Assembly (NCBI GenBank): GCA_964649085.1
Contig: CAZYPN010000002.1
Coordinates: 158,991-222,990, forward strand
DNA from: an uncultured Burkholderiales bacterium
GTDB taxonomy: Bacteria > Vulcanimicrobiota > Xenobia > Xenobiales > JADMJV01
Direction of reading: 5' to 3'
Length of the DNA: 64,000 nt
The notes below the pieces were generated by a model that had not been told where the DNA came from, did no database searches, and saw only the letters and a list, made by a program, of their open reading frames with translations. Positions 1 to 57,334 of this stretch are shown one piece after another. Position 1 is the first letter of the stretch. Each line of letters opens with the position of its first letter. Position numbers and translations under genes: made by a program.

Positions 1-1593
1 ATGGCCATCGATGCCGATTTGGGAGCCGGACTGATCGATGCCGACACCGCCAAAGCCCGCCGTGCCAAGGTTCAACGGGCAGCCGACTTCTATGGCTCGA
101 TGGATGGAGCCGGCAAATTCATCAAGGGCGATGCCATCGCGGCCATCGTCATCATGGTCGTCAACGTGGTTGGGGGTCTGGTGATGGGCTGCGGCTACTT
201 CGGAATGAGCGCTGGAGAAGCGTTGCAAACCTACGCCGTGCTCTCCATCGGCAATGGCCTCATCACCACGTTGCCCGCCTTTCTGATGTCGACCTCGATG
301 GGCATTATCGTATCCCGGGCCGCTTCCTCGTCCAACCTGGCCCGCGACCTGGTGTTGGAGATCTTGGGCCAGCCCCAGGCCCTGCGCTTTAGCGCCTTCT
401 CCCTGTTGTTGCTCGGCTTCCTGGGGCTCACCGGTCTCTTCGCCTTTCCGGCTCCGCCCTTCTTTGCCCTGGGGGGCGCCATGCTCTACGGTCACCACCT
501 GCTTTCTCAGGAACGCCAGGACGTGCAAGCCAGGCAAGAAAACCAGAAGGCCGAGGTCCAACGCGAAGTGGTCAAGAACCCCGAGCGAGCGGTGATCAAC
601 CTGGGCATCGACCCGCTCAGCCTGGAAGTGGGTCGGGGGCTGCTGGCCCTGGTCGACCCCGGGCAGGGCGCCAAGTTACTCGAGCGCGTGACGGCCATTC
701 GTCGCCACATCTCCCTGGAAATGGGGCTCATCCTCCCCGGCGTGCGCTTTCGCGACAACCTGCAACTCAAGCCCAATGCCTACGTCATCAAGATTCGCGA
801 AATCGAGGTAGCCCAGGGCGAAGTCCAACCGGGTCAATTCCTGGCCATCGGGCCGGCCGACAAGCTCAAAAGCCTGCGGGGCCTCCGAACGGTCGACCCC
901 ACCTACTCGATGCCGGGCATCTGGCTGCCTCCGGAGCAGCGCGGCGATGCCGAGCGACTGGGCTGCATGCTCTTCGACCCGGTCAGCGTCATCGCCACCC
1001 AGCTCACCGAGGTGGTGCGCAACCACGCCGACCAGCTGCTTCACCGCCAGGACGTCCAGGGTTTGCTCGACCACGTCAAGAAAACCCACCCGGCCGTGGT
1101 CAGGGAAGTGGTGGGTGAGGGGCTGGGCCTGGGGGAGGTACAGAAAGTGCTGCAGAATCTGGTGCGAGAGCGCGTGAGCATCCGAGACATGGTGGTCATT
1201 CTCGAGTGCCTGGCCGACCATATGGCCATGACCCGGGATACCGAGATGCTCACCGAGTTTGTGCGTTCCGCCCTGTGTCGCAACATCTGCAAGGATTACG
1301 TCAACGCCGAGGGCGTGCTGCAGGTGTTGACGCTGGACCCCGTGCTGGAAAGCCGGCTACAGACCACCAGCTCGCTCAGCCCGGGCGACGCCCAGGAGGT
1401 GATGCAGGCTCTCGATGAGCCCCTTCGACGCCTGCAAGAAAAAGGGCTACAGCCCATCCTGTTGACCTCGCCCGGAGTGCGGGCCCGGCTGCGAAGGCTC
1501 ACCGAGAGGTCGTGGCCCCAACTGGTGGTGTTGTCGTGGAATGAAATCGCCCCGCGCGTGCAGGTGCATTCGCTCGACATGGTCACATGTTAA
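1..1593 (+). CDS. flhA: FlhA/SctV-family type III export apparatus protein, partial (N-terminal ~130 aa lie upstream of window)
   Basis: Translation contains the conserved FlhA/InvA block 'MAIDADLGAGLIDADTAKARRAKVQRAADFYGSMDGAGKFIKGDAIAAI'. Large cytoplasmic C-terminal domain. ORF runs from window edge. Confidence 0.8.
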   Translation: MAIDADLGAGLIDADTAKARRAKVQRAADFYGSMDGAGKFIKGDAIAAIVIMVVNVVGGLVMGCGYFGMSAGEALQTYAVLSIGNGLITTLPAFLMSTSMGIIVSRAASSSNLARDLVLEILGQPQALRFSAFSLLLLGFLGLTGLFAFPAPPFFALGGAMLYGHHLLSQERQDVQARQENQKAEVQREVVKNPERAVINLGIDPLSLEVGRGLLALVDPGQGAKLLERVTAIRRHISLEMGLILPGVRFRDNLQLKPNAYVIKIREIEVAQGEVQPGQFLAIGPADKLKSLRGLRTVDPTYSMPGIWLPPEQRGDAERLGCMLFDPVSVIATQLTEVVRNHADQLLHRQDVQGLLDHVKKTHPAVVREVVGEGLGLGEVQKVLQNLVRERVSIRDMVVILECLADHMAMTRDTEMLTEFVRSALCRNICKDYVNAEGVLQVLTLDPVLESRLQTTSSLSPGDAQEVMQALDEPLRRLQEKGLQPILLTSPGVRARLRRLTERSWPQLVVLSWNEIAPRVQVHSLDMVTC

Positions 1594-2348
1594 GTCTGGC
1601 CCTGATCGCTGCTGGCCTGCAGCTTCTTACCCTGATGGTCCTGGGTCCTTTGAGCAGGTGGCGGCGTTGGCCCGCCCTCTGGGCTGTTGCCCTGGCCCTG
1701 CTGGCGGGCCTGGGCTGGCTGCAGCGTTCACACCCCCTGCACTGGCTGCTGGCCGGACCTCAGGAATACCTGATGTTCGGACCGCTGAGTCTGCTGGTGC
1801 TGGGACTGCCGGGACGGCACATTCCGCGAAGAGCCACCCGCTGGATCCTGGCGAGCCTTTCGCTGCTGGTGTTCACCCTCTACGGAGTGGGGCCGCTGCT
1901 GGCCCCCGCCCTCTGGCCACCGGCTCCGGCCAGCCGAGGCTCACACGGTGTGTGGCTCCAAGGCGACAGCTACGGCTGTGGTCCGTCGGCCAGCCTGACG
2001 GCCCTGGAACTCCTGGGGGTCCAGGGCGACTTTCCCGCACTCGCCCGCCAGGCTCTGACCAGCCCCCTGATCGGCACGGCTCCCGATCTACTCTGCCGCG
2101 CCCTGGAGAAACTCTATCCGGTGCGGGCCAGGTGGCTGCAACCCCGCAGCCTGGCCGAGGCAGGAACAGGTCCCCTGCTGCTGATTCTTCACCTGGGGCC
2201 CATGGTCGACCATTACGTGGCCCTGCTGGAGCAGGACAGCAAAGGACTGTGGATCGGCGATCCGTTGGACGGCCGGAGGCACATCACGACGGCGGAGTTT
2301 CGTCAGCGCTGGACCGGGGCGGTCATCCGGCTGGAACGCCGACCTTAG
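1587..2348 (+). CDS. Polytopic membrane protein with C-terminal peptidase C39-like (papain-fold, bacteriocin-processing-type) domain
   Basis: N-terminal hydrophobic helices. 'WLQGDSYGCGPSASLTALELLG' resembles the C39 Gln/Cys 'Q..xxCG.A.L' block. 'DHYVALL' is a candidate His block. C-terminal 'IGDPLDG...ITTAEFRQRWTG' matches the C39-like end. Overlaps flhA stop by 7 nt. Confidence 0.5.
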   Translation: MLSLALIAAGLQLLTLMVLGPLSRWRRWPALWAVALALLAGLGWLQRSHPLHWLLAGPQEYLMFGPLSLLVLGLPGRHIPRRATRWILASLSLLVFTLYGVGPLLAPALWPPAPASRGSHGVWLQGDSYGCGPSASLTALELLGVQGDFPALARQALTSPLIGTAPDLLCRALEKLYPVRARWLQPRSLAEAGTGPLLLILHLGPMVDHYVALLEQDSKGLWIGDPLDGRRHITTAEFRQRWTGAVIRLERRP

Positions 2349-5373: not shown

Positions 5374-5667
5374 CTAGCGGTCCAGGTCGCGCAACCCCAC
5401 CATGGCCAGCAAATCGCCCACCGGGCAATGGGCCTCAACAGGGTGACGCAGCGGCAACGTGGGATTCACGCGATAGCGGTTCTTGCGCCCCTCGCGCAAT
5501 TTCTCCAGGTAGCCGGCCTGCACGAGGTCGCCAATAATCTTGTGCACGGCTCGCTCGGTGATGCCAACTCGGTCGGACAGTTCACGCAGGGTGATCTCCG
5601 GATTGGATACGATGCAGATCAGCACATGACTGTGGTTCGACAAGAATGTCCAGCGTTGTTCGCTCAT
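5374..5667 (-). CDS. Winged-helix HTH transcriptional regulator (ArsR/MarR-like), last gene of pilus operon
   Basis: 'ITLRELSDRVGITERAVHKIIGDLVQAGYLEKL' is an HTH plus wing pattern. ATG at 5667-5665 overlaps the pilB TGA (5669-5667) as ATGA. Confidence 0.55.
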   Translation of the reverse strand: MSEQRWTFLSNHSHVLICIVSNPEITLRELSDRVGITERAVHKIIGDLVQAGYLEKLREGRKNRYRVNPTLPLRHPVEAHCPVGDLLAMVGLRDLDR

Positions 5668-7382
5668 CAGTGCGCCAGCAAAGCCAGGGCCTCGTCTACC
5701 GAGGTCAACCCCTGGCGAACCTTGCTGGCCAAACTGGAACGCATGGGAATCAGCGCCCCACACGCCAGAGCGGCTGATGCAATGCGATCGGCATTGGCCG
5801 ATTCGGCCGGTAAAGCCCGCAACTCGGCAGTAAAGTCGAGCAGTTCGTGGACGGCAATGCGACCCTTAAATCCAAAGTGGTTGCACTCCTGACAGCCCAA
5901 CGGACCGAAGAACTGGCCCTCGAGCTGCAACGCTGTCAGACTTTCCTGGGAAGACTCCTCGGACCGCTTACATCGGGGACACAGGCGTCGCACCAAACGT
6001 TGGGCCAGCACGCCGTTGAGTGAAGCCTGAATTTGATACAGGGGAATGCCCATGTCCATCAGCCGCGTAATGGCCTGAGGGGCATCGTTGGTGTGCAGAG
6101 TGGAAAACATTTGATGACCGGTCAGAGCGGCCCGCACGGCGATTTGCGCCGACTCAAGGTCGCGGATCTCACCCACCAGCACCACGTCGGGGTCGTGGCG
6201 CAAAATGGCTCGCAGACCCTGAGCGAAAGTGTAACCGATGTCGGGCTGCACCTGGATCTGAGTGATCCCCGCCATCTGATACTCCACGGGATCTTCCAGC
6301 GTGATGGTTTTGCGGGTGGTATCGCTGATGCGGTGCAGGGTGGCATATAACGTCGTGGATTTGCCCGATCCGGTCGGCCCGGTAACCAGCACAATGCCGT
6401 GGGGTCGCTTGAGAATCTTCTCATAACGATCGAGAATCTCGGACTCAAAGCCCAGACTGGTAAGCTCAAGCTGAACGGCGTGGGGATTGAGAATTCGAAT
6501 CACCACACCCTCGCCGTTCACGTTGGGGATGATGGATACCCGCAGGTCGTACTTCTTGTCGTCGACCACCAGGCTGGAACGACCGTCCTGAGGCAGGCGC
6601 CGTTCGGCGATATCCATTCCTGCGCTGATCTTGATGCGCGAAATGACGGCATTGTAAAGGGCCAGCGGGGGCCCCGGGAACTCGCGCAGCAGGCCATCGA
6701 CACGATAGCGAAGCAGCACCTTGTTGGGGAAGCTCTCCAGATGAAGGTCACTGGCACCCAGGCGAATGGCCTGGGCCAGAATATGGTCGACGAGCTTGAT
6801 GGTGGGAGCGTCGCGATCTTCAAGCGTAGCCGCCTGCTGGACCTGGCCCTGAGCCTCGCCGCCAGCGGCCGCGGTGATGGCTTGCAGCGTGCGGCTCGAC
6901 TCTTCCGAGGTCAGCAAACTGCGATTCAACGCTTCCTCGATATCGCGGCCCAGCGCGAACACCGGCTCGACAACCAATCCGGTAAGTTTCGCCACGAAAT
7001 CTTGCGTTTGCAGATTGTAGGGGTCGCTGACGGCCAGATACAGATGCTGGCCCACTCGGAACAGGGGAATCGCCTTGACCCTGCGAGCCTGGTCTTCGGT
7101 CAGCAAATGAACGCAGGCTGGATCGGGATGATAGCGCCGCAAAGCCAGAGCAGGACAATCGTAATGACGAGAGAGCACGTCGAGCAACTGAGACTCTTCC
7201 ACCCAACGCTGCTGAAGCAAGAAATCGGCCGGGTCGCGCTGACTACTCAGCCGTTGGCGCTGCTCGTCGCTCAGCTCGAGACGCTCGACCCAATCGCTCA
7301 AGGGGTCACCAGGCCCAGGGCTTGTTGGTAGAAGACGATTTCGGCGGGGCCGCTCGACGAACTGGGCTGCAATTGATGCCAC
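5667..7382 (-). CDS. pilB: Type II secretion / type IV pilus assembly ATPase (GspE/PilB family)
   Basis: GspE_N-like N-domain. Walker A 'GPTGSGKSTT', Asp box, His box, and tetracysteine 'CPRCK...C..C' are typical of GspE/PilB. The start may be internal, because the ORF overlaps the pilM 3' end by 85 nt. Confidence 0.85.
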   Translation of the reverse strand: MASIAAQFVERPRRNRLLPTSPGPGDPLSDWVERLELSDEQRQRLSSQRDPADFLLQQRWVEESQLLDVLSRHYDCPALALRRYHPDPACVHLLTEDQARRVKAIPLFRVGQHLYLAVSDPYNLQTQDFVAKLTGLVVEPVFALGRDIEEALNRSLLTSEESSRTLQAITAAAGGEAQGQVQQAATLEDRDAPTIKLVDHILAQAIRLGASDLHLESFPNKVLLRYRVDGLLREFPGPPLALYNAVISRIKISAGMDIAERRLPQDGRSSLVVDDKKYDLRVSIIPNVNGEGVVIRILNPHAVQLELTSLGFESEILDRYEKILKRPHGIVLVTGPTGSGKSTTLYATLHRISDTTRKTITLEDPVEYQMAGITQIQVQPDIGYTFAQGLRAILRHDPDVVLVGEIRDLESAQIAVRAALTGHQMFSTLHTNDAPQAITRLMDMGIPLYQIQASLNGVLAQRLVRRLCPRCKRSEESSQESLTALQLEGQFFGPLGCQECNHFGFKGRIAVHELLDFTAELRALPAESANADRIASAALACGALIPMRSSLASKVRQGLTSVDEALALLAH

Positions 7383-8305
7383 TGCTCAACCCGCACCGGC
7401 AAGCCCAGCGATTCGGTCAGACGCTCATCCAGGCCCTTCCACAGAGCCGTGCCCCCCGTAAGAATGACCTGGCCGGGCTTGAGCATGGGAAACCGTTGCT
7501 GAGCAAACTTCACGGAGCGCTGAATCTCGGTAAGCCATCGCTGAATGAAGGACTCCACTTTGAAGTCTCGCTCCCCCACGTGGTATTCCAGCTTGGACTG
7601 CTCGGCCTGGTCCCAAGCGACCTGATCGCCCATCTGGAAAGCGTAGGTGAAGTCAGCCCCGGCCATGCCAAAATCGCGGCTGAAATAGGGCTTGCCGCCT
7701 GAGAGCAGCAGAACGTGAGTGGTGCGAAATCCACACACCACCACCAGCGAACATTCCTCGCTCGGAACCTTGCGGTTCAGGGCCAGGCCGCGCACCAGGG
7801 CCAGCACCGCGGGTTCACACGAAGCCACTTCGAGACCGCCCTGCACAAACAAAGCCTTGCGCGCGCCCAGGGTTGCCTTGGGAATGGCCAGAAAAAAATA
7901 GCCCAGATGGTCGGGTTTGTGTAGCGCGGGCACCTCAAACGGATACAGGTCCACCTCGGCCAGGGTGTGGGGAATATCTCGGGCGGCTGCCGTAGGCAAC
8001 GCCAGCTTCAGTTGCTCTCGGGTCAGCCGCGGCACTTCCACATAGCCCGTGGCGGCCGTGGCGTCTTCTAGCGACAGATGAATCTTCGGGGTGGAGCGGC
8101 CGGCCTCGCGGGCCACCCGCTCAATATGCTGGCAGGCCAGAGCCCCCAGTTCGGCAGGGCCGAGATCGTCCTCTTTGCCATGGCGCTGCGAAACAAGCGG
8201 AACATGAGACACGGTGCAGGTAGTTCCCGAGCGATCGAGGCAACACACCTTGAGGGCATAGCTACCAAGATCTACACCGAGCTGGACCTTTTTCTTCCAG
8301 AACAC
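7298..8305 (-). CDS. pilM: Type IV pilus assembly protein PilM (actin-like ATPase fold)
   Basis: N-terminal 'LGVDLGSYALKV' and overall length/pattern fit PilM. Position is immediately upstream of pilB. Confidence 0.65.
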   Translation of the reverse strand: MFWKKKVQLGVDLGSYALKVCCLDRSGTTCTVSHVPLVSQRHGKEDDLGPAELGALACQHIERVAREAGRSTPKIHLSLEDATAATGYVEVPRLTREQLKLALPTAAARDIPHTLAEVDLYPFEVPALHKPDHLGYFFLAIPKATLGARKALFVQGGLEVASCEPAVLALVRGLALNRKVPSEECSLVVVCGFRTTHVLLLSGGKPYFSRDFGMAGADFTYAFQMGDQVAWDQAEQSKLEYHVGERDFKVESFIQRWLTEIQRSVKFAQQRFPMLKPGQVILTGGTALWKGLDERLTESLGLPVRVEQWHQLQPSSSSGPAEIVFYQQALGLVTP

Positions 8306-8338
8306 CTCAGAAGATTCGGATGCAACCGAGGCCTTCCT

Positions 8339-9586
8339 TCACAGTCGCTGGCGGAAAAGCACGGTAAGCCCGGACGAACTGCCGCCACCGGAGTTGGATC
8401 CCGTTGGCGAAAACTCGGCCAGCGCCACGTCATAGTGAATGCTGGCCGCCCCCGACAGCTTCACCCGATCGCCGACCAGAGCACCGAAAATCGTGGCAGA
8501 GTTGCTCAACTCCATATCGGCTCCCGGCCCGTAGACAACCCCCACAAGATCGGTTCCGCCCGATTGATCGTACTTGGCTCCGTCGCCCAAATAAATCTGC
8601 AGCAACTCGGGTCGGGTGCCATTCTCGGAAAGCCGGGCTCCGTTGCTGAGCTGCATCTCCTTCGACACGAAAATCTGCACCGGCCCGTCTCCGGCCAGCT
8701 CGATTCGGGTGCCGCCCGAGATGTCGAGTTTCTCGAAAATGTAGGTTCCGGCTTCAAGAGTAAGACGGGCGCCGTTGCTGATGGTCACCGTGCGATAGTT
8801 GCCGGGTTCGAGCGACTTGGATTTCGAATTCAAGCTCAGATCCTTATCTCCAGGCTTACCGGGTGCCTCAACCGTAGGAAGGTCAAGCGGTGTGGTTTGA
8901 ACCTCGGCCTTTTCGTAGCTGGTGCCCCAGTCTTTCCAAATGGTGCTGTCTTTGCCCATGGTGCTCCCATTGGGAACTGTGGCATCGACCTTGCCGCCAA
9001 CGCCCACCAGGATCGTGCCGTCGATACTGGCCCCTCCGGTGATCTGGACCGAACCGGCTTTACTCGAATTGGTCACCACCCTCGCCTGGGATCCACCTTT
9101 CTTGTAGGGCCCCAATCGACTGTCATACGAGTCGATCGAGGCCCCGTTGGAAAGCGCGATAGAACTGCCAAAAGCTCCCGGCACACCCTTGCCTACCGAG
9201 GTTCCGGGCCGAACCAGCGCACAGGCTCGGCGTCGGGTGGTGGGGGCGAAAAAGCCCGTGCTGATCACATAGATACAGTCGGAGGGAATGGCCTGTCCAT
9301 CCAGGGTACGGTTGGGGCTGCGAAGAATTTGAATGTGATAGGTTTCGGGACCATCCCCCAACTGCACCGGCTGAGCCAATCCGGCATATCCCGAATTCTC
9401 AGCCAGCAGCTTGAGAGCCACCACCAATCCTGAGTCGGCGGCCGCCTGGGCTCGCTCGCTGCCCAGTCGATGAACAGCCATTTGCAGCTGCTGTCGTGAG
9501 CCCCAAGAGAGCGCGAAGGCGATGGCCATCAAGATCGCTCCCAGAGCCACTGCCAGCGCCAGCACAAAGCCCGCCCGGCGCCTCAA
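8339..9586 (-). CDS. Membrane-anchored pilus-associated protein (PilX/TadG-like minor-pilin-associated; candidate tip/adhesin)
   Basis: Single N-terminal TM 'FVLALAVALGAILMAIAFAL'. Gly/Ser/Thr-rich C-terminal region with repeated 'SNGARL', 'GGASIDG', 'GGT(R/D)' motifs. Start ATGA-overlaps the upstream pseudopilin stop. Confidence 0.4.
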   Translation of the reverse strand: MRRRAGFVLALAVALGAILMAIAFALSWGSRQQLQMAVHRLGSERAQAAADSGLVVALKLLAENSGYAGLAQPVQLGDGPETYHIQILRSPNRTLDGQAIPSDCIYVISTGFFAPTTRRRACALVRPGTSVGKGVPGAFGSSIALSNGASIDSYDSRLGPYKKGGSQARVVTNSSKAGSVQITGGASIDGTILVGVGGKVDATVPNGSTMGKDSTIWKDWGTSYEKAEVQTTPLDLPTVEAPGKPGDKDLSLNSKSKSLEPGNYRTVTISNGARLTLEAGTYIFEKLDISGGTRIELAGDGPVQIFVSKEMQLSNGARLSENGTRPELLQIYLGDGAKYDQSGGTDLVGVVYGPGADMELSNSATIFGALVGDRVKLSGAASIHYDVALAEFSPTGSNSGGGSSSGLTVLFRQRL

Positions 9587-10167
9587 TTCTGGGGTACCAC
9601 GCTGGCCACGAATTCTACCTGGTAACCGTTCGGTGTGGTCGTGAACAGGCGAACGCGATAGGCCCGATTGGAGGGCCCGGAAACCTCAAAAGCCCGCACG
9701 TTTCGCAGCAATATCCTTTGCCGCCAGGACGACGGTGCCAGCGGTGGCCCCGTCGTCAACTCGCCTCCGCTGGTCACGGGCGTGACAAAAGCCTGTTCGG
9801 CGCTCCAAAGCGTACCATTGTTGAGGCCGAAGGCCCTCCAGCTCGACCAGATCGGCACTCCCGAGCGGTCGAATTGCAGCGCGCTGCTCCCAACACTGGC
9901 GGCTCGAGGGATGACAATACCCGCAATGTTGGCATCTCGACGGATCGACTCGGACCGGCTCCAGGAAAGCTCGGACATCACGGTGTTCAAGGCCTTTTCC
10001 GAGAGGCTCAGCGTCTCCTGGACAGCCTGATAGCGCAAGTTCAGACGGGCGAAGAAGATCAGGTAGCCCATCATCAAGGTTCCCGCCAGGCCCATCAACC
10101 CCATCGAGACCACGGCCTCGGTCAGGGTGAAGGCGTGGCAGCGTCGACTAACCGGGACTGTCGACAA
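9583..10167 (-). CDS. Prepilin-type N-terminal cleavage/methylation domain protein (pseudopilin)
   Basis: 'RCHAFTLTEAVVSMGLMGLAGTLMMGYLIFF' is a class III signal-like motif (A/G-FTL.E plus hydrophobic helix). Confidence 0.55.
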   Translation of the reverse strand: MSTVPVSRRCHAFTLTEAVVSMGLMGLAGTLMMGYLIFFARLNLRYQAVQETLSLSEKALNTVMSELSWSRSESIRRDANIAGIVIPRAASVGSSALQFDRSGVPIWSSWRAFGLNNGTLWSAEQAFVTPVTSGGELTTGPPLAPSSWRQRILLRNVRAFEVSGPSNRAYRVRLFTTTPNGYQVEFVASVVPQN

Positions 10168-10534
10168 AGCACTTCACCTCCACTCGATGATTACGGCCGC
10201 CTTCCTGCCAAAGAACTCGCGAGCGAACGAACAACAGGCCCTGTTGTGACGAGGTTTCCAATTGGGGCTGGAACTGCATCACCGAGCGGCCAATGCGACA
10301 GGAAATCGTTGCCAACGGTTGCACGCCCAGGGTGGGCTTCAGATTACCGGCTCGCACCGACTCCAACCCTTCGCGGGCGATTTGAACGGCCACCCGAACC
10401 TGGGCGGCCTGAATGTAGCTGCGCTCTGCCGAAGAAACCACGCCCAGAGTGGCAACCCCTACCACGAACATGACGAAAAAGGCCACCACCACTTGAGTCA
10501 GCAAAAAACCTCTGAAGCGGTGAATGCCCATCAC
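10148..10534 (-). CDS. Pseudopilin-like protein (prepilin-type N-terminus, E5->Q)
   Basis: 'FRGFLLTQVVVAFFVMFVVGVATLG' is a G-F-L-L-T-Q prepilin-like motif followed by a hydrophobic helix. Confidence 0.5.
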   Translation of the reverse strand: MMGIHRFRGFLLTQVVVAFFVMFVVGVATLGVVSSAERSYIQAAQVRVAVQIAREGLESVRAGNLKPTLGVQPLATISCRIGRSVMQFQPQLETSSQQGLLFVRSRVLWQEGGRNHRVEVKCFVDSPG

Positions 10535-11745
10535 ATCATCAGCGCCGGCAAATTGAGGAAGGGAAGTGCCAGCCCCAGGATCACTCCCCCAAGAATGAGC
10601 CCGACCAGCACCGTAAGTGCCGGTTCAAGCAGGCTGGTAAGGCCCCGCAGGGCGTGCTCGCAGCGACGGGTGTAGAAGCGATCAATTTCGGTCAGCATAC
10701 GCTCCAGAGCCCCGGAACTCTCTCCCGTCGCCACCATTTCACAGGCCATCGAGGGGAAGAATTCGGTGCCACGCATGGCCGAGGACAACATCTCGCCCAG
10801 CGTCACCCGCTCCCTCAATGTCTGCACCAGAGCGGCCACATGCACGCTGGGAGTGGCTTCGGCCACCACCGTCAGGGCCTGAGCCAGGGGCACCCCACTG
10901 CGATACAGCAGACCCAACGTGCGCGCGAAGAGAGCCACCTGGAGGCCCTTGAAAATCTGATTGAAGGGATACAGTCGCAGCAGGAAGGCCTCGAAGCCAG
11001 CCCGGGTTGGCCCGTGCTTCAGGCCACGTCGAAGGCTCACAACTGCCAGCACGATGCCGAGAAGCCAGGCCCACCAGTAGCTCGAGAGACTCATGCCCAC
11101 ATTGACCAGGATCTGCGTTGGCAGCGGCAAGGCCGCACCCATGGCGTCGAAAATCGACTTGATCTGGGGCACACCCCAGGCCAGCATCAGACCGGCCAGA
11201 ATACTGGCCACACTCAGAACGAACAAAGGATAGGCGAGTGCCGAACGAACCTGACCCATCAGAGCATCCCGGCTCTCCATGTCCTCGGCCAGTTGACCCA
11301 ATACCTCCGGCAGCCGTCCCGAAGCCTCGCCAGCCCGCACCAGTTTGGATTGATAGATCGGAAAAACGGCCGGATGCTGGGCCATGGCGTCGGACATATT
11401 GGACCCCTCGGCCAGGCCGCTGGCGACCTGCCTCAACACCCGCTGCAGCCGGCTGTTCTCGCAGTCATCGGCCAGAGTCTCAAGACATGGCTTCAGTGCC
11501 ACTCCGGCCGAAGTGGCCACGGCCAACTGCTGAAAAGTGGCCAACAACTGCTCGGTGGAGGGGCCTCTTTCAAACAGGGGCTGATGCTCGCGAATGGCCC
11601 GCAACTCGGTGACCAACTGATAGTGTTCCGCCAGACTTTGCAGGGCAGCCGAACGAGAACTGGCCTGGATGTTGCCACTGACCAGTTGCCCCTCGTGATT
11701 CTGAGCTTGATACTGATAACGGGGCACGAAAGACTCCTTTCCCAC
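10531..11745 (-). CDS. Type II secretion system / type IV pilus inner-membrane platform protein (GspF/PilC family)
   Basis: 404 aa with two GspF repeats, three TM segments, and a typical 'GLILGGVILGLALP' C-terminal TM. Confidence 0.85.
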   Translation of the reverse strand: MGKESFVPRYQYQAQNHEGQLVSGNIQASSRSAALQSLAEHYQLVTELRAIREHQPLFERGPSTEQLLATFQQLAVATSAGVALKPCLETLADDCENSRLQRVLRQVASGLAEGSNMSDAMAQHPAVFPIYQSKLVRAGEASGRLPEVLGQLAEDMESRDALMGQVRSALAYPLFVLSVASILAGLMLAWGVPQIKSIFDAMGAALPLPTQILVNVGMSLSSYWWAWLLGIVLAVVSLRRGLKHGPTRAGFEAFLLRLYPFNQIFKGLQVALFARTLGLLYRSGVPLAQALTVVAEATPSVHVAALVQTLRERVTLGEMLSSAMRGTEFFPSMACEMVATGESSGALERMLTEIDRFYTRRCEHALRGLTSLLEPALTVLVGLILGGVILGLALPFLNLPALMM

Positions 11746-11843
11746 GGGTTCGCCCCCCTGCCTCGTTCGCCTTCAGCCTTAAGGCTGAAGCCAGCCAGGC
11801 TTAAGTCTGAAGGCATCGATGGGTTCAAGGCGAAGCCGCCGCT

Positions 11844-12245
11844 GTGGAGCGACCGCTGCTGATCTACGTTGTGGAAGACAGTCCTACTCAGGCTCTGGGG
11901 GTCAAGCGCACCTTGAAGAGCCTTCAACCCGTGGAGGTCAAGCTCTTCAGCGATGGTCTGGAGGCACACCGAGCGGTACAGTCCTGCCCTCCCGATCTCC
12001 TATTGATGGACCTGTTGGTGCCTTCGTTGCACGGCCTGGCCCTGTGCCGTTTACTGAAGTTCCACGCTGACTTTCAGCATATTCCCGTGCTGATTTTCAG
12101 CTCGATCACCGAAGTCGACATTCTCGAGCAAACCCAGGCGGCCGGTGCCGACGCCTTTTTGCCCAAGCCTTTCGATCCCGAACAACTGGTCAGCCGGGTG
12201 CGCAAACTGCGTCCCGAACTGCGACCGGTAGAGGCGTCGGCGTGA
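11844..12245 (+). CDS. Response regulator receiver (CheY-like, stand-alone REC)
   Basis: 'LLIYVVEDSP', 'DLLLMDLLVPSLHGLAL', 'IPVLIFSSI', 'LPKPF' are REC signature positions. Starts at GTG. Confidence 0.8.
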   Translation: MERPLLIYVVEDSPTQALGVKRTLKSLQPVEVKLFSDGLEAHRAVQSCPPDLLLMDLLVPSLHGLALCRLLKFHADFQHIPVLIFSSITEVDILEQTQAAGADAFLPKPFDPEQLVSRVRKLRPELRPVEASA

Positions 12246-13012
12246 AAGCCGAAGTCTTCTGGGACGACTTTCTCGACGCTTTGGAGTCGGCCCTCGAGCC
12301 CGATCCCGAGGCCCTGAGCCTGCGCGAACTGTATGTCCAGGGTCGCCTGTGGCAATCCTGGTGCAAGCGGCCCCATCGAGCCCCCGAGCGTTTCCAGCCC
12401 AACGATTGGGCCAGCAACTTTATGCGCTCAGGGCTGGGTAAACTGGAACTCAACCCGGACCTCTCCCAGCCTCGTCAAGGCGATCCCTGGCTCCTGGAGT
12501 TGCTGTGCCGCTCGTTGCTGGCCCTCAGCCCGGCCGGGACGCTGCACATCTCTGGCGATCCTCTGGCCCTCTGGCTCCGCCCTCCTCCGGGCCTGCCGAT
12601 TCCGGCGATGAAGGGCCCCCTACTTCAACGTCTCGGCTGGTCGCTTTCACTGGAGTGGACCTCCGACGGCATCCGTGTGCCGTGCCCCCTTGCGGTCGAG
12701 ACAACTGCCAGCCCGGTGGACTTTGACTCGCTGAGGCGCACCACGATGGACGATCCAGAGTTCGAACGCGAACTGATCGAAACGTTCCTTTCCGAGGGTC
12801 AACACCAACTCGAGAGCCTGCAGTTGCGCTATGCCAGCAACATTCTCCATTCGTTTCGCGGCAGTGCCTCGATGGTCGGAGCACGCACATTGACCGAACT
12901 GTTGGCAGCTCAGGAGAAACAGCCGGATCCGGCCCAACTTGTCCATTTGCAAAAGGAATTCGAGGCCGTCAGCGACTGTCTCCGTCAGCGACTACAGCAA
13001 CTCCACGCGTGA
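12242..13012 (+). CDS. Hpt (histidine phosphotransfer) domain protein
   Basis: C-terminal 'ILHSFRGSASMVGARTLTELL' fits the Hpt 'HxLKGSxxxxGA' motif. GTGA overlap with the upstream REC gene. Confidence 0.55.
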   Translation: MKAEVFWDDFLDALESALEPDPEALSLRELYVQGRLWQSWCKRPHRAPERFQPNDWASNFMRSGLGKLELNPDLSQPRQGDPWLLELLCRSLLALSPAGTLHISGDPLALWLRPPPGLPIPAMKGPLLQRLGWSLSLEWTSDGIRVPCPLAVETTASPVDFDSLRRTTMDDPEFERELIETFLSEGQHQLESLQLRYASNILHSFRGSASMVGARTLTELLAAQEKQPDPAQLVHLQKEFEAVSDCLRQRLQQLHA

Positions 13013-13020
13013 GGTGAAAC

Positions 13021-14727
13021 TTGAAAATCCTGGGTATTTGCCACGACGTCTTGATCTGTTCGGCCGCCCTGCTGATCGATGGCGAGGTGGTAGCAGCGAT
13101 CGCTGAAGAGCGTTTGGATCGCCAGAAGCAAAGCCGCCATTTTCCCGCCCTGGCGGTGCAGCGCTGCCTGTCGATGGCCGAGCTCAAGTTTTCCGACCTC
13201 GACGAGGTGGCCGTGGCCTGGAATCCCTCCTTGGAAATGGACACCGTGCCCTCGGGCTTCCTCTCGCGCCGTTGGCGATCGGAGCACCTTTCACAGGTGG
13301 CAGCTCGCTTCAGCCAGCTCTTTCCCGCACCCCCCTCAGCAGAACTTCAGCTGCTGGGGGTCCGCCAGGGTCTGCCTCCTATCACGTTCGTAGACCACTA
13401 CCACGCCCATCTGGGCAACGCCCTCTACCTGAGCCCTTTCGAGAACTGCGCCGTAGCGGTGCTGGACGGAAGGGGGGAAAAGCAGACCAGCTTGCTCGGA
13501 TTGGCCGAAGGAACCCGCTTTACGGCTCTCTCGGAAGTCAAGTTTCCCCATTCCCTGGGGCTCTTTTATGGAGCCGTCACCCAGCATCTCGGCTTCAAAC
13601 CCGATGGGGACGAATGGAAAGTGATGGCCCTGGCATCCTTCGCCAGCCCCGACAATGGCTATCTCGAACCCATGCGTCAGCTGGTCCGCCTGGACGGGCG
13701 GGGAGGTTTTGAACTGGATCTGGGCTATTTCGAGTTCTTTAATTTCTTCGAGCCGAAGATGTACAGCCAGCGCTATATCGACGTCTTTGGTCCGCCTCGT
13801 CGTCGCGACCAGCCGCTCGAGCCTCGCCACTACGAGATCGCCGCGGCCGCCCAAAAGGTCTTCGAGGATGCCGTCAGCGCCTTGCTGCACTGGCTGCATG
13901 AGCGCACCGGTCAAGCACATTTGGTGGTGGGCGGGGGCTGCTTTATGAATAGCGCCTACAACGGCAAGATCACCTCCCAGACCCCCTTTCGTGAGTGCTT
14001 TGTCGGCAGCTGTCCCGACGATTCCGGAACCTCCTTGGGGGCGGCCCTGTGGCTGCACGCCCAGCGCACCGGGCAACGCCCCCCAGCGGCCATGAGCCAC
14101 AACTACTGGGGGCCTGCCTACAGTGACGAAGACTGTCTGAGCGTGGCCCGACGTTACAAACTCGGCCCGCTCGAAGTCTGTGACGATCCGGGGCGGCGGG
14201 CTGCCCAGGACTTACTCTCGGGCAATATCCTGGGCTGGTTTCAGGGAGCCATGGAGTTTGGCCAGCGGGCCCTGGGGAATCGTTCCATTCTGCTCGACCC
14301 TCGCCGCAGCGACGGAAAAGACGTGGTCAACTCGGCCGTCAAGTTTCGCGAACATTTCCGCCCTTTCGCGCCGGCCATTCTGGCCGAGCACGTCAGCCAG
14401 TGGTTCGAGTGCGAGGCGGGCACAAGAGTGCCGTTCATGGAGAAGGTACTGCCCTTCCGACCCGGCCAGGGAGAAAAGGTTCCGGCCGTGCTTCACGTAG
14501 ACGGCACGGGTCGGCTGCAGACGGTGGACGAGCAGAGTTCTCCCCGTTATCGACGGCTGATTCAGTGCTTTTATGAGGAAACCGGGGTTCCCATCGTGCT
14601 CAACACCAGCTTCAACCTCAATGGTGAGGCCATCTGCTGCACGCCCGAGGATGCCCTGCGCTCGTTTTTCACGTGCGGGCTGGACGTCCTCTACCTGGGC
14701 AATGTGCGAATCTCCAAGATTCCCTGA
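13021..14727 (+). CDS. Carbamoyltransferase, NodU/CmcH family
   Basis: 'KILGICHDV...AAIAEERLDRQK' N-terminus, 'HYHAHLGNA', and 'VVGGGCFMNSAYNGKI' are typical of NodU/CmcH. Likely TTG start, preceded by GAGGTG. Confidence 0.8.
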   Translation: MKILGICHDVLICSAALLIDGEVVAAIAEERLDRQKQSRHFPALAVQRCLSMAELKFSDLDEVAVAWNPSLEMDTVPSGFLSRRWRSEHLSQVAARFSQLFPAPPSAELQLLGVRQGLPPITFVDHYHAHLGNALYLSPFENCAVAVLDGRGEKQTSLLGLAEGTRFTALSEVKFPHSLGLFYGAVTQHLGFKPDGDEWKVMALASFASPDNGYLEPMRQLVRLDGRGGFELDLGYFEFFNFFEPKMYSQRYIDVFGPPRRRDQPLEPRHYEIAAAAQKVFEDAVSALLHWLHERTGQAHLVVGGGCFMNSAYNGKITSQTPFRECFVGSCPDDSGTSLGAALWLHAQRTGQRPPAAMSHNYWGPAYSDEDCLSVARRYKLGPLEVCDDPGRRAAQDLLSGNILGWFQGAMEFGQRALGNRSILLDPRRSDGKDVVNSAVKFREHFRPFAPAILAEHVSQWFECEAGTRVPFMEKVLPFRPGQGEKVPAVLHVDGTGRLQTVDEQSSPRYRRLIQCFYEETGVPIVLNTSFNLNGEAICCTPEDALRSFFTCGLDVLYLGNVRISKIP

Positions 14728-14816: not shown

Positions 14817-17800
14817 ATGAAGCACGCCGCACTCAAACAGTTGCTCCGCGTGATGGCTCGATTCAGCGCCATCACGCTGGGCCTGTCGATGGTTCTCCTG
14901 CTGGGGGCCTTCTTTCTGGCGTACTTTTTCAAAGACCAAATTTTACAGCACTACCGCCGGCAACTGGAAAAAAGTCTCAACGTCAACATCGCCATCCAAA
15001 GCTCCCAGCTGCGGGGCCTTCAGCTTCAACTTCGCGGAGTTCAGGCACAAACGCGAGGCGGGGCCCCGCTGGCCCGCATCGAGCGCCTGAAGGTCAACTT
15101 CCGCCCCTGGGCCGGCCTCACCCACGGAGCCGCTCGCTGGATCGACGCCTGTCAGTTGGAGCAACCTCAAATCGACCTGATTCTCGATGAGCAGGGTCGG
15201 CTGAACTGGGATTCCGTCACCCTGCCGACTCTCCCAGCACCCACCAGTCCCGAGCAAACGTTTCGGGGTGAGGTGCGTTTCGAGGGTGCCTCTCTCAGCC
15301 TGCGCGACCAACGCCAGGGCGGATTTCTGGCCCAACTCCCCCCGCTTCAGGGCCAGGTGGTGGTCAGGCCCGACCGACGCTGGACGGCCAGCGCCCAGGG
15401 GGCCCACCTGAAACTTCACGGCCAGGGCAGCCCGGGAGACCAGCAAATCCGACTTCAAATTGACGATCTGCCGCTGGAGGACTACCTGCAGCACCCTGAA
15501 CTGCGCGGCCTGATCCGGGCGGAGCAGGCTCTCGCCAGGGGCTCCCTGGAGGCCCGCTGGGGACCCGCAAAACCACCCCTGCTAAGTGGCAAAATCGGCC
15601 TGTCGGCCAGTTCTCTGGCCCTGCCCTCTTCCGGCCAAAGTCTGCAACAGGCCAGCGCCCAGCTTGCCTGGCTGGGCGGGAGCCTGTCGATCGAAAAGGC
15701 CCGGGCACTGTGGCAGGGCATGCCGATCCATATCGAGGGTGAAGTCAAAAGTGGCCAGCACGGTTGGGAGGACCCCTGGCTTGATCTGCGCCTGCGGGCA
15801 CCCCAAATTGCGCTGAAAAAGCTACAGCCCTGGCTCAAGGGAGTTCCGGTTGAACCCAGCGGAACGCTGGCCCTTGACATTCTGGCCGAGGGCCCCCTCT
15901 CTGAGCCCCAGGTCAGGGGGAGGCTGAAAGGTTGGAAACTGCTGCTCGGCGGCCAGCACCTGGCTGATGTTCTCAGCGACTTCGAGCTCGATGCCACCAG
16001 CCTGCACATTGAAAAACTGCTGGCCCATACCGGGCAGGGTGAGGAGTTCTCGGCCTCGGGCTGGATCTTTCGCGGTGGCGACCAGCGCATTTTCTTACGC
16101 CTTCAGGGCGGCCAAGCCGATTTGCGGGCCTTGCACCCCTGGCTGGGCCAGGGGCAGGATCTCGAGGTTACCGCGCTGGGATCGCTGCTCGATCCCATTT
16201 TAACAGGACACGGTCAACTGGCCGCTCTACCCCATAATCCCCTGGGCCTGACCGGGGCCGACGGAAACTTCTGGATCGACTCCGGCTCGGCCCTGGTCTG
16301 GAACTCGGCTCTGCAGGGCTCCGGAGGAGAAATTCAGGTACCCTGGGCGGTGCTCGATCTGACTCGAGGTCAACTGGCTGGGGCGGTCACCACCGAGCGG
16401 TTCAACCTGGCCACTCCGCAGGCCCTTCTGGAACTGCGAGGCGGAGGCCAGGGCGTGATCGACCTGAAAAACCAAAACTATAGCGGAACCGCCTGGCTGG
16501 AAGACAGCCGCATTCAGGCTGGCGGACTACCCTCCCTGAATGGCGTTCGCGGGTATCTGGCCTTTGAGCCCGGCGCGATGCTCGTGCCGCAACTCGAATT
16601 CCAGGCAGCGGGTGACCCGGTGGAGGTCACGGGCAGTTGGAACTCGGGGCAGGGCAATCTGTGGCTCCGTTCTCCCGGCATCAACCTCGCCCATTGGCTG
16701 AACCTCCCCGGAGCACAGGGGACCCAGCAACTCATGGCCTCGGCCCGAGTGCAGGCCGGGCAGATTGACGCCTTCCGCCTGTCCACTCGAGGCACGTTGG
16801 GGGATGCCTGGGCGGTGGGTCGCTGGCTTCCCGGGCAGGGTCCCGAACTCTACACCCAGTTCGCCAACCTGAGCCCGGGCAACGCCCCGCCGCTGGTGGG
16901 CGAGCTGGCCACCCGTTGGAATCAGGGACGGATGCAATACCTCTATCGGCTGGCGCCCGAACAGGGTGCCGACCAGACCTGGGCCTTCGGCCAGGGATGG
17001 TTGCAGGGAAATCAGCTGCACCTGGCCGAGAATTTCCTGCACCAGCCGTCGCTTGAACCCGTTGTTCAAGAGCATAAAGAGGGACGAGCCTATTCCTACT
17101 TTGGTCCGCTCGAGGGACCGCCCCTCATCACCGTCCACGATGGGGCCGTGCCGCGCAGCCAGGGAACGCTGAGCTGGAAGGGTCGCCTGGACCTGCGGCG
17201 CAAGCGCCTTCAGGTCGATGTTCAGGGACGACAACTGCGGGCCCATCAGTTAGCCGCCTGGTTCGGCCCCCTGGCCCAGCCGGCACCCGAGTGGTGGGTG
17301 GAACAGGGCGTACGACTCGAGGAAGCCGTCGTCGACGTGGATGCTCGGGGCGACGGTCCCCTGAACGGGCTGCAATGGTCGGCCTCGCTGCGCTCTCCCT
17401 GGACCCGCCTTTCGCGCAACCTGGGCGATGAACTGCGCTCCACCGCCTTCTCCTGGCGCACCGAGGCCGAGCTCCGAAGTGGCAGGCTGCGCCTGACCAA
17501 CCTGCTTTCACCCCGGCCTCAGGACTGGTCTCTGATGAGCTGGCGAGGTCCGCGTCGAGGCGGAACCCCCGAGGCCGATTGGCTGCGCTCGCGATTGGAA
17601 CTGGATTCCAAGTTGCAGCTCGCCGGCTGGGTGCGTGCCGAAGCCTTCCCCATGAGCACTGCCGGCTGGTTCACCCCCGGATGGGTCTCGGGCCAGTTGC
17701 CTTCGGGCAAGTTGAGCACCGGAACGGGGCAGGGGCTGCGGATCAGCGGTAGCCTTTCTCGTCCACTGCTCGACGGTCGCGTCGACCTGGTGGATGGCCG

Positions 17801-22274: not shown

Positions 22275-23624
22275 ATGTTAGAGCAAAAGATTCAGGGCCG
22301 AAAGGCCAACATTACCATTATCGGACTGGGCTATGTGGGGCTTCCACTGGCGCTTGGTTTCGCCCGCAAAGGGTTCAAAGTTTTCGGGCTCGACGACGAT
22401 AGCCCGAAAATTGAGAAACTGCTGTCCGGACAGGACTACATCAACGGCCAGAACGAGGTTGTGCGCCAACTGGTCCAATCGGGCCACTTCCAGCCCACTC
22501 GCAACAGCGAGGTGATCTCTCAATCCGATGTGGTTGTCATCTGCGTTCCCACCCCACTTACCCGCAACCGCGAACCGGATATTTCCTATGTGGAACAGGT
22601 GAGTCGTCGCATCGGTCAGTTGATCCAGGTGGGCAGTCTGGTGGTGCTGGAGAGCACCACCTATCCTGGCACCACCGAAGAAGTGGTGTTACCCGCCATC
22701 CTGGCCGGCAATCGGGTGACTCGAGTCGGGCAAGACTTCCATCTGGCCTTCAGTCCCGAGCGCGTCGACCCGGGCAACCCCTCGTACGACTCCTACAACA
22801 CCACCAAAGTAGTCGGTGGCGTAACGCCGGCCTGCACTCATCTGACCACCTTGCTGTACCAGGCCCTGCTCGACCATCCCGATCTGGTGAAGGAAGCCTC
22901 TTCTTCACGCGCGGCCGAGATGGAAAAACTCTTTGAAAACATCTTCCGCAGCGTCAATATCGCACTGGTGAACGAACTGGCCCTGTTGTGTCGCGAGATG
23001 AACCTGGACGCCTGGGAGATTCTCGACCTGGCCAGTACCAAGCCTTTCGGATTCATGCGATTCAACCCGGGTCCGGGTATCGGTGGGCACTGCATTCCCC
23101 TGGATCCCTTCTACCTCACCTGGAAAGCCCGTGAATTCGATTTCCCCACTCGCTTCATCGAATTGGCCGGAGAACTCAACTCGCGCATGCCCTTCCACGT
23201 GGTCGACCTGGTGGCCGAAGGGCTGGGCTCGCGAGGCCTGGAGGACGCCCGGGTGTTGCTGCTGGGCATGGCCTACAAGAAAGATGTCGCCGACCACCGC
23301 GAGTCGCCATCGCTGAAGGTCTACGACTTGCTGCTGAAGCGGGGCGCACGAGTCGACTACTTTGACCCCCTCATCCCCCAGATCAAAACCGCCGACGGCA
23401 TGCTGCGCTCGGTGGCCGCAGGAAGCTTCCAGGACTATGACTGCCTGGTGTTGATGACCGACCACAGTCAGTTCGACCTCTCCAAGCTGGTGCGTGCCTG
23501 CAAGGTGTTCGTCGACACTCGTGGGGTTGTCCGAGAACTGAATCAGGACTTTGGCGACACCCGCGTGCTGGGGCTGGGCCTACCGGCCCGGCGCACCGGG
23601 CCGCGCCTGCAAGTGGTTCACTGA
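22275..23624 (+). CDS. Nucleotide-sugar dehydrogenase (UDP-N-acetyl-D-mannosamine / UDP-GlcNAc 6-dehydrogenase family)
   Basis: 'ITIIGLGYVGLPLALGFA' Rossmann motif, catalytic 'GGHCIPLDP', C-terminal UDPG_MGDP_dh domain. ATG at 22275 preceded by GAGGTAGGAAC. Confidence 0.85.
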   Translation: MLEQKIQGRKANITIIGLGYVGLPLALGFARKGFKVFGLDDDSPKIEKLLSGQDYINGQNEVVRQLVQSGHFQPTRNSEVISQSDVVVICVPTPLTRNREPDISYVEQVSRRIGQLIQVGSLVVLESTTYPGTTEEVVLPAILAGNRVTRVGQDFHLAFSPERVDPGNPSYDSYNTTKVVGGVTPACTHLTTLLYQALLDHPDLVKEASSSRAAEMEKLFENIFRSVNIALVNELALLCREMNLDAWEILDLASTKPFGFMRFNPGPGIGGHCIPLDPFYLTWKAREFDFPTRFIELAGELNSRMPFHVVDLVAEGLGSRGLEDARVLLLGMAYKKDVADHRESPSLKVYDLLLKRGARVDYFDPLIPQIKTADGMLRSVAAGSFQDYDCLVLMTDHSQFDLSKLVRACKVFVDTRGVVRELNQDFGDTRVLGLGLPARRTGPRLQVVH

Positions 23625-25066: not shown

Positions 25067-25083
25067 CCCCAGATTATAACACG

Positions 25084-25308
25084 TTAATTCATCGAGCAGA
25101 ATCCCTGGTCGACACAGCTGCCACAGCCCCCCGGGGGACAGCTCATGGGCATCTCCTCGCCCCCCGACTGGGGAGAACTGAAGGCAGAGAACAGCTTGCG
25201 CAGGTCGCTTTGCTGGCAATGAGGACACTCTACGGCGTCCTCAGAACGGCGAAGCAGTTTCTCGAAACGGTGATGACATTGGTTGCAGGCGTATTCGTAA
25301 ATCGGCAT
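25084..25308 (-). CDS. FmdB-family zinc-ribbon protein (putative regulatory protein)
   Basis: 'MPIYEYACNQCHHRFEKLLRRSEDAVECPHCQ' is the canonical FmdB CxxC...CxxC ribbon. Transcribed divergently from the giant coiled-coil gene. Confidence 0.7.
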   Translation of the reverse strand: MPIYEYACNQCHHRFEKLLRRSEDAVECPHCQQSDLRKLFSAFSSPQSGGEEMPMSCPPGGCGSCVDQGFCSMN

Positions 25309-42311: not shown

Positions 42312-42359
42312 CGGAAAGGTTTCCAAATCCAGGGTTCCCAGGCCTTCTGGAGAAGCTGG

Positions 42360-57174: not shown

Positions 57175-57260
57175 GTTCTTGTCCCTCCAGATTTTCGTTG
57201 TCGAAACTTCTCTTGCCCAGTGTATCCCCCGGTACCGGGGAGCCGACAAGGGCTTAAATG

Positions 57261-57300
57261 TTGAACATTTGCAACAAGTTTGTTTCAAAAGTGTTAACCA
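57261..57300. promoter_or_regulatory. AT-rich palindrome-dense element in divergent intergenic region (candidate promoter/operator for map and/or the Gly/Met-rich gene)
   Basis: 'TTGAACAtttgcaacaagtTTGTTTCAAaagTGTTAACCa'. Contains inverted TTGAACA/TGTTTCAA, palindromic TTGCAA and GTTAAC. Shares TGTTAACC with the rpsB upstream region. Confidence 0.3.
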
Positions 57301-57334
57301 GGCTTTCGTCGGCGCCATCCCGAACCCCTGGCCC

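Follow-up and report, generated by a model that had tools for sequence, protein, structure and literature searches.

A recurrent type IV filament locus linking a PilB-like motor, predicted tip pilins and a CheY-like receiver in uncultivated bacteria

Introduction

What would a bacterium build with a type IV filament locus that has its own motor and its own CheY-like receiver, whereas in the best-studied type IV filaments several sets of minor pilins use one motor? Such a locus lies at positions 5374–13012 of a 64,000-nucleotide (64 kb) stretch of contig CAZYPN010000002.1 (positions 158,991–222,990; this whole stretch is called the window hereafter), derived from an uncultured bacterium placed in Vulcanimicrobiota. 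Seven tightly packed open reading frames (ORFs) occupy the minus strand (5374–11745), and two divergent ORFs are on the plus strand. In the direction of transcription, the former encode a GspF/PilC platform protein, two small pilin-like proteins (p1 and p2), a large protein (X), a PilM-like protein, a PilB/GspE-family ATPase and a winged-helix regulator. The latter encode a CheY-like receiver and an Hpt phosphotransfer protein. This gene content and order, and the divergent transcription of the receiver and Hpt genes, were proposed in the initial annotation and are borne out by ORF positions and Pfam matches.

Type IV filaments are usually classified into type IVa pili (T4aP), type IVb pili (T4bP), Tad, MSH, type II secretion system (T2SS) and Com. 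The locus is, as first proposed, a distinct and non-canonical member of this superfamily, with an ATPase, a platform and a PilM of its own. On balance, and with considerable reserve, we lean toward the view that it exemplifies a conserved type IV filament module, composed of a dedicated motor, a three-protein tip set and a receiver, with its other parts supplied in trans. All of these parts come from known families, and solenoid-capped priming sets have already been described. What is new, as far as the literature searched goes, is that such a set is linked, in a conserved manner, with a PilM/PilB/PilC motor and a receiver of its own, without PilN or PilO.

Recurrence of the Module and Its Receiver

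The genomic contexts of homologues of the ATPase and X were sampled from 98% down to 46% identity. The nearest ATPase homologues are labelled Eremiobacterota, Vulcanimicrobiota or Xenobiia, and the source of the window most likely belongs to that phylum. All 12 related loci carry the module genes as far as the contigs reach, beside an orthologous receiver gene. Because the same genes recur together at these 12 other loci, the arrangement is not a matter of chance. Eight other lineages found through the ATPase or X (ATPases 69% to 46% identical) have the full module and the receiver in permuted orders. Loci L001 and L008 keep the order of the window with a divergent receiver-Hpt pair. The order is p1-p2-X-PilM-ATPase-platform-receiver at L009 and PilM-ATPase-platform-p1-p2-X-receiver at L010, L011 and L012. 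At L015, PilM-ATPase-platform-receiver is found with Hpt-p1-p2-X nearby, and at L016, PilM-ATPase-receiver stands opposite platform-p1-p2-X, with CheA-like, CheX and receiver genes adjoining. The module is a conserved unit in Eremiobacterota-like and allied uncultivated bacteria, and its conservation extends from at least two Eremiobacterota classes to lineages in which ATPase identity has fallen to 46%.

The reverse search started from the receiver. Module receivers have the signature PSLxGLA..RLLKFH in common, and a hand-made degenerate DNA pattern for it was run against JGI metagenomes. It retrieved five loci, one of which (L019) is a chance match. The four true matches are all module loci; one is a complete module of the Xenobiia type, and another is an Hpt-receiver/platform-p1-p2-X locus of the window type. 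By this signature, the receiver belongs to a subfamily dedicated to the module.

Some of the related loci hold more than the module. Motor-less prepilin sets ending in a large X-like protein are present at L009 (14673–17764; 657 amino acids, aa) and L011 (1574–5439; 438 aa, DUF7305). Further PilB-like ATPases are encoded beside the module at L001 (16186–18402; 738 aa, with a DZR domain and a weak Pfam receiver match) and at L012 (6659–8759; 568 aa, with its own receiver and kinases upstream).

Three Pilin-Like Proteins and a Predicted Tip Set

X (8339–9586, minus strand; 415 aa) matches DUF7305 in Pfam (E 7e-22), a family of which no mention was found in the literature searched. Its N-terminus is hydrophobic and of the processing type (RRRAG↓FVLAL; the arrow marks cleavage), with Leu at +5 in place of Glu5, and this is kept in homologues. 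An AlphaFold model built from 17 homologues (predicted local distance difference test score, pLDDT, 83) runs from a 43-residue N-terminal helix through a small sheet and a long beta-helix to one last strand, VLFRQRL, of which the C-terminal VLFRQR is invariant among homologues. The model thus predicts a pilin fold with an ice-binding-protein-like triangular beta-solenoid inserted before the last strand, and X would be a cap pilin of PilX/ComZ type. It had been described as a large minor-pilin-associated protein; the protein itself is pilin-like in its predicted fold and its processing-type N-terminus. Taken broadly, the family has many members (9,093 cluster representatives at E ≤ 1e-3, 106 at E ≤ 1e-30), and the close subfamily is small (17 close homologues). 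A scan with a narrow peptide pattern from an alignment of eight X sequences returned one genome and is uninformative on distribution.

p2 (9583–10167, minus strand; 194 aa) has a weak N_methyl match in Pfam and a class-III signal peptide (RRCHA↓FTLTE), of which Glu5 is invariant in orthologues and the residue at −1 is Ala instead of Gly here and at L008 and L009. Its match to ComGE (E 7e-4) is far under the cutoff, and sequence-profile matches in PDB cover N-terminal pilin helices only. From its predicted J-type two-sheet pilin fold with Glu5, p2 appears to be GspJ/PilW-like. p1 (10148–10534, minus strand; 128 aa), defined by its sequence and the orthologue alignment, also has a class-III signal peptide (HRFRG↓FLLTQ). 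It has no match in Pfam, NCBIfam or PDB sequences, where the profile search gave noise only. The residue at +5 of its N-terminus (10507–10521, minus strand) is Gln here and at L008, and Glu in seven other lineages. Size and position suggest a GspI/PilV-like protein. The N-termini of p1 and p2 are the only ones with class-III signal peptides in a six-frame scan of the window. Taken together, p1, p2 and X most likely form a priming or tip set of the I-J-K type and not a fiber.

Comparable sets are known. In Thermus thermophilus, the genes pilA2-pilA3-comZ, which we take to encode a small pilin, a J-like pilin and a cap, have a gene order like p1-p2-X. Unlike the module, the Thermus competence locus is not known to include an ATPase, a platform, a PilM or a receiver, and its neighbor is the major pilin gene pilA4. 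In ComZ, an ice-binding-protein-like solenoid interrupts a GspK-like pilin domain ahead of its final strand, and a location at the pilus tip, with the GspI-like PilA2 as binding partner, was argued for it (PMC6561018). The architecture of X, known from the predicted model, is that published for ComZ (structure 6qvi; TTHA1218/1219). A profile search of PDB sequences with X gave no match, so that there is no detectable sequence similarity between the two. DNA binding may be a role of the solenoid tip.

A second parallel is found in cyanobacteria, in which all PilX proteins share a ComZ-like architecture, and several PilX-PilV-PilW-FimT sets per genome (Com-type, EPS-type) prime distinct filaments (preprint 10.64898/2026.02.12.705559). 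The cyanobacterial PilX caps and X both have the solenoid insertion and lack Glu5, and the extra sets at L009 and L011 parallel the multiple cyanobacterial priming sets. The module differs in having no FimT/GspH-like adaptor. Moreover, the cyanobacterial sets are modelled to use one PilB/PilC/PilMNOQ machine (10.64898/2026.02.12.705559), whereas the module set has a PilB/PilC/PilM of its own, and a receiver, linked with it. In comparison with GspI-GspJ-GspK of T2SS, the X cap has a beta-solenoid where GspK has an alpha-helical insert.

Missing Components and the Origin of the Fiber

The window was covered by a six-frame pilin-motif scan and by Pfam scans of most larger ORFs. PilN, PilO, PilP, PilQ, PilT, a prepilin peptidase, a secretin and a further prepilin N-terminus or major pilin were not found in it. 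The initial annotation had already noted that the operon lacks PilN/O/P/Q, a major pilin and a prepilin peptidase, and the scans found neither these nor PilT in the rest of the 64 kb. The system is therefore semi-autonomous. Its earlier description as self-contained does not hold: the locus provides a tip or priming set and not a fiber, and for a peptidase, an outer-membrane channel and, probably, a major pilin it has to rely on genes elsewhere.

Where these parts may come from is suggested by Vulcanimicrobium alpinus, the sole cultured member of the phylum, for which type IV pilus motility and pilus-based phototaxis were reported (PMC9758169). In its gene table, pilB, pilT and pilC form one cluster and pilD, pilM and pilQ another, and a Tad locus is listed as well (PMC9758169, Table S8). 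Thus canonical T4aP loci, unlike the module, exist in the phylum, and the original idea that the present locus is an accessory one is plausible. These loci, together with the extra motor-less sets and the further PilB-like ATPases of related genomes, are why we favor a specialized system that stands beside a main pilus and takes its peptidase and outer-membrane channel, and probably also its fiber subunit, from the latter.

Several points weigh against this view. No major pilin is linked to the module at any of the 12 loci, and therefore p1 could itself be the polymerizing subunit. The Gln at +5 of p1 here and at L008 is also unfavorable. The supply of PilD, PilQ and the major pilin in trans is assumed, and the receiver may contact a target other than the motor. 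We know of no characterized precedent for a PilM working without PilN and PilO. Finally, in the sister strain (L006), which keeps the regulator, each of the two palindrome copies in the divergent promoter (see below) carries two non-compensatory changes.

The strongest alternative is that the locus builds a stand-alone minimal pseudopilus, like ComG or the piston of T2SS, in which p1 polymerizes into a short fiber, periplasmic or spanning the envelope, p2 and X cap the polymer, and the private motor drives DNA uptake or secretion with no need of PilN/O/Q or a major pilin. We regard it as possible but not likely. Besides the absence of a linked major pilin gene, its attraction lies in the canonical N-terminus of p1 in most lineages, G↓F(T/S)L(I/V)E, in a p1 size that is about that of ComGC- and GspG-class subunits, and in the module having an ATPase and a platform but no PilT. 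In addition, ComZ, to which X is closest among solved proteins, acts as a DNA receptor specific to competence. However, Glu5 is nearly invariant in polymerizing pilins, and p1 has Gln instead in the source genome and at L008. The order and sizes of p1, p2 and X fit I-J-K sets, and the extra motor-less sets in other genomes imply a shared fiber subunit. No ComEA, ComEC or DprA gene is found near any of the loci. Furthermore, a TamB-like gene (14817–20567) points to a diderm cell, in which uptake or secretion would still need an outer-membrane channel. A bolder version would make the module a deep-branching filament class of its own, in which PilM, a PilB-like ATPase and a PilC-like platform, without PilN/O/P/Q or a separate major pilin, extend no more than a short solenoid-tipped pseudopilus, and a dedicated phospho-CheY docked on the motor switches this extension directly. 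This we consider rather doubtful.

Position of the Motor among Known Systems

Is the motor simply that of T4aP? The ATPase (5667–7301, minus strand; 544 aa) has MshEN and T2SSE domains (Pfam, E 7e-128), and its translation contains a Walker A sequence (GPTGSGKST) and the tetracysteine motif. RLGxx...Q motifs of the cyclic di-GMP type were not recognizable by eye in its MshEN domain. In NCBIfam, it aligns over its full length with the PilB model TIGR02538 at 541 bits (cutoff 675.65), and it scores 514 bits with the GspE model (cutoff 630) and 261 bits with ComGA (cutoff 300). Its best match among PDB sequences is Myxococcus PilB (413 bits, full length), and JGI annotates its homologues as PilB. 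The platform protein (10531–11727, minus strand; 398 aa) matches T2SSF in Pfam (E 1.5e-51), and its NCBIfam scores are 299 bits with GspF (cutoff 424), 234 bits with PilC equivalogs (cutoff about 700) and 112 bits with ComGB (cutoff 240). The PilM-like protein (7298–8305, minus strand; 335 aa), a predicted cytoplasmic actin-fold protein, matches PilM_2 in Pfam (E 7e-20), scores 98 bits with TIGR01175 (cutoff 133) and is matched by PDB PilM sequences at E 5e-10. Neither here nor at any of the 12 related loci is it followed by PilN.

Model scores do not allow the motor to be placed in T4aP, T2SS or ComG. Membership in T2SS was considered and rejected: the ATPase and platform score nearly as well with the GspE/GspF models as with the PilB/PilC models, which is a likeness to T2SS beyond the I-J-K set, but the GspE and GspF scores are below their cutoffs. 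No GspC, D, G, L or M domain is found in the window, GspH is likewise lacking in the module, and PilM takes the place of GspL. Membership in ComG was also rejected, with the ComGA and ComGB scores below their cutoffs and PilM present. For T4aP, the ATPase is below the PilB equivalog cutoff, and PilN/PilO/PilP, PilQ, PilT, PilD and the major pilin are not in the window. By gene content, that is the presence of PilM and the absence of GspL, the motor is nearest to T4aP.

The remaining reading of this similarity is that the locus is the core T4aP assembly locus in a split arrangement, with PilN/O/P/Q, PilD, PilT and PilA encoded elsewhere in the genome and no second PilB, PilC or PilM. The full-length likeness of the ATPase to PilB, the PilB labels of its homologues and the presence of PilM, a hallmark of T4aP, would fit this. 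However, V. alpinus pairs pilB with pilT and pilC, and pilM with pilD and pilQ, and neither pairing is found here. The ATPase, platform and PilM are all below the NCBIfam equivalog or subfamily cutoffs, and PilM is never followed by PilN/O at the 12 loci. The module always has its own minor-pilin set and receiver, and at L001 and L012 further PilB-like ATPases adjoin it. A core locus is therefore quite unlikely.

At the N-terminus of the ATPase (7281–7301, minus strand), a peptide M..W(L/V/I)(E/D).(L/M) is present in all nine aligned module ATPases except that of L001. As a speculation, this peptide could be a docking site for PilM that replaces the missing PilN.

Receiver and Hpt Protein

The receiver (11844–12245, plus strand; 133 aa) is a single-domain CheY-like protein (Response_reg, E 3e-21, 76 bits in Pfam). 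Its acidic pair (E11-D12), phospho-accepting Asp (D56), Ser/Thr position (S86/S87) and Lys (K108) are conserved in eight orthologues. The Hpt protein (12242–13012, plus strand; 256 aa) carries a predicted phosphotransfer domain in its C-terminal part, with a Pfam score just above threshold (28.0 bits, cutoff 24.6) and the histidine motif LHSFRGSA, conserved as LHS(F/L)(R/K)GSA in three orthologues. Orthologues are present at L001, L008 and L021. The N-terminal part of about 165 residues (12242–12736, plus strand) is also conserved among three orthologues, here and at L001 and L008; the N-terminal 170 residues have no Pfam match at E up to 10 in three orthologues. No Pfam match supports a degenerate kinase ATP-binding domain in this part, an identity that had been considered.

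The phosphorelay input proposed in the initial annotation is upheld as far as the receiver is concerned, since an orthologous single-domain receiver adjoins the module genes at 12/12 related loci. The pairing with Hpt is less general: Hpt is restricted to the clade of the window and to L015, where it is a separate 133-aa protein. At several loci, the receiver gene is in the same operon, directly after the gene for X, the platform or the ATPase. PAS/GAF sensor kinase genes adjoin most copies of the module, and most lineages have such kinases, Hpt or CheA-like genes at its side. That the receiver and Hpt proteins are mere neighbors regulating something unrelated to the filament, as their opposite strand here and the absence of Hpt in many lineages might suggest, is hardly credible, since the receiver stays with the module despite the rearrangements, in several cases within its operon, and the receiver signature retrieves only module loci among true matches.

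CheY-like receivers with Hpt partners are known to control pilus extension in the Chp/Pil-Chp and cyanobacterial Pix/Tax systems (PilG/PilH, and PixG/PixE acting on PilB). The CheA-like, CheX and receiver genes beside the module at L016 resemble such Chp/Pix-type control. The differences are that the Hpt protein here lacks kinase, CheW and P2 domains, that no methyl-accepting chemotaxis protein accompanies it, and that the receiver forms its own subfamily and is part of the structural operon in many lineages. The weak receiver match in the further ATPase of L001 suggests that receivers may act directly on such ATPases.

A Possible Mechanism

What the analysis shows are the genes, their predicted folds, their conservation and the dedication of the receiver subfamily to the module; tip-complex formation, the parts supplied in trans, the target of the receiver and the biological role are inferred. 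The cap X would join p2 and p1 on the platform to nucleate a filament and form its tip; the ATPase would then extend the filament with a major pilin encoded elsewhere. The prepilin peptidase would be supplied in trans, and so would a secretin if the filament is surface-exposed. The solenoid tip would be the working end, as a receptor for a ligand, DNA or a surface, and the filament may serve DNA uptake, adhesion or motility. With PilM, the ATPase or the platform as its binding target, the receiver would gate the motor. In the source clade, phosphate may pass from a hybrid sensor kinase encoded elsewhere to the co-translated Hpt protein and from there to the receiver; in other clades, an adjacent PAS/GAF kinase probably phosphorylates the receiver. 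The winged-helix protein, a species-specific addition, probably autoregulates through the palindromes of the divergent promoter.

If the module does build a filament of its own, these bacteria would have a specialized tip, whether a DNA receptor, an adhesin or a surface sensor, under two-component control and independent of the main pilus. It would also be a compact and genetically separable system in which to ask how a CheY-like protein switches a PilB-type ATPase and whether PilM can function without PilN/O. With pilus-driven phototaxis in Eremiobacterota, a link to light or redox sensing through the PAS/GAF kinases next to the module can be tested.

The Winged-Helix Regulator and the Divergent Promoter

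The last gene of the operon (5374–5667, minus strand) encodes a small winged-helix protein of 97 aa, similar to HTH_24 and MarR_2 (E 1.6e-9; HTH_24 37.6 bits, cutoff 21.9, Pfam). Outside the window, the gene is found only at L003, L004, L006 and L007, which are near-identical contigs of the same or a sister strain, and a winged-helix gene after the ATPase is absent in every other lineage examined. It is a lineage-specific add-on, and the notion of an embedded regulator as an integral part of the system is not supported. In the divergent promoter region (11728–11843), a perfect 20-bp palindrome, CTTCAGCCTTAAGGCTGAAG, is located at 11771–11790, and an imperfect second copy follows 22 bp on (11793–11812). 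The palindrome pattern has two matches against 0.04 expected in the window and is otherwise absent from it. The palindromes are a candidate operator; a conserved operator is a weaker proposition given the non-compensatory changes in L006.

Gene Junctions and Start Codons

The genes of the operon have tight junctions and are coupled in translation. The ATG of the regulator and the TGA stop of the ATPase have one base in common (cacTGATGagc, a TGATG overlap), so that the ATGA fusion reported at first is incorrect. For the ATPase, the most likely start is a TTG that shares bases with the PilM stop (TTGA) and gives 544 aa; gene callers on near-identical contigs agree. X likewise starts at a TTG, overlapping the p2 stop; gene callers give it a start that yields fewer than 415 aa. 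For the platform gene, the second GTG (11727), downstream of the strong Shine-Dalgarno sequence GGAAAGGAG, is the most likely start, and an indel in the sister strain puts the upstream GTG out of frame. From this start, the divergent gap is 116 bp; the 98 bp originally given was measured to the longest-ORF start. The longest ORFs extend over 5374–5763 for the regulator, 5667–7382 for the ATPase and 10531–11745 for the platform, all on the minus strand. The GTG start of the Hpt gene overlaps the receiver stop (GTGA).

Other Genes in the Window

The G+C content of the window is about 62%, and no tRNA or Rfam features are found in it. At its start, the C-terminal part of FlhA (FHIPEP; 1–1593, plus strand) is cut by the window boundary and followed by a Peptidase_C39-domain protein (1587–2348, plus strand). 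V. alpinus was reported to be without flagellin or visible flagella (PMC9758169). Downstream of a carbamoyltransferase gene (13021–14727), the TamB-like gene (14817–20567, plus strand) encodes a TamB/AsmA/DUF748 protein of 1916 aa, which is consistent with a diderm envelope. A single ORF of 4242 aa (25381–38109, plus strand) has no Pfam domain, and its composition (Q 20%, L 17%, E 16%, R 11%) looks like that of one giant coiled coil; this composition is the reason for the strong positive AT skew over 24–38 kb. Four further putative ORFs on the minus strand have no Pfam match at E ≤ 1e-3: 23618–25228 (536 aa), 40437–43556 (1039 aa), 56398–57540 (380 aa) and 61101–62657 (518 aa). At the other end (62393–63937, minus strand), a polyketide-synthase (PKS) dehydratase N-terminal match is combined with a class I/II aminotransferase domain, and this ORF may form one end of a PKS-type gene extending beyond the window.

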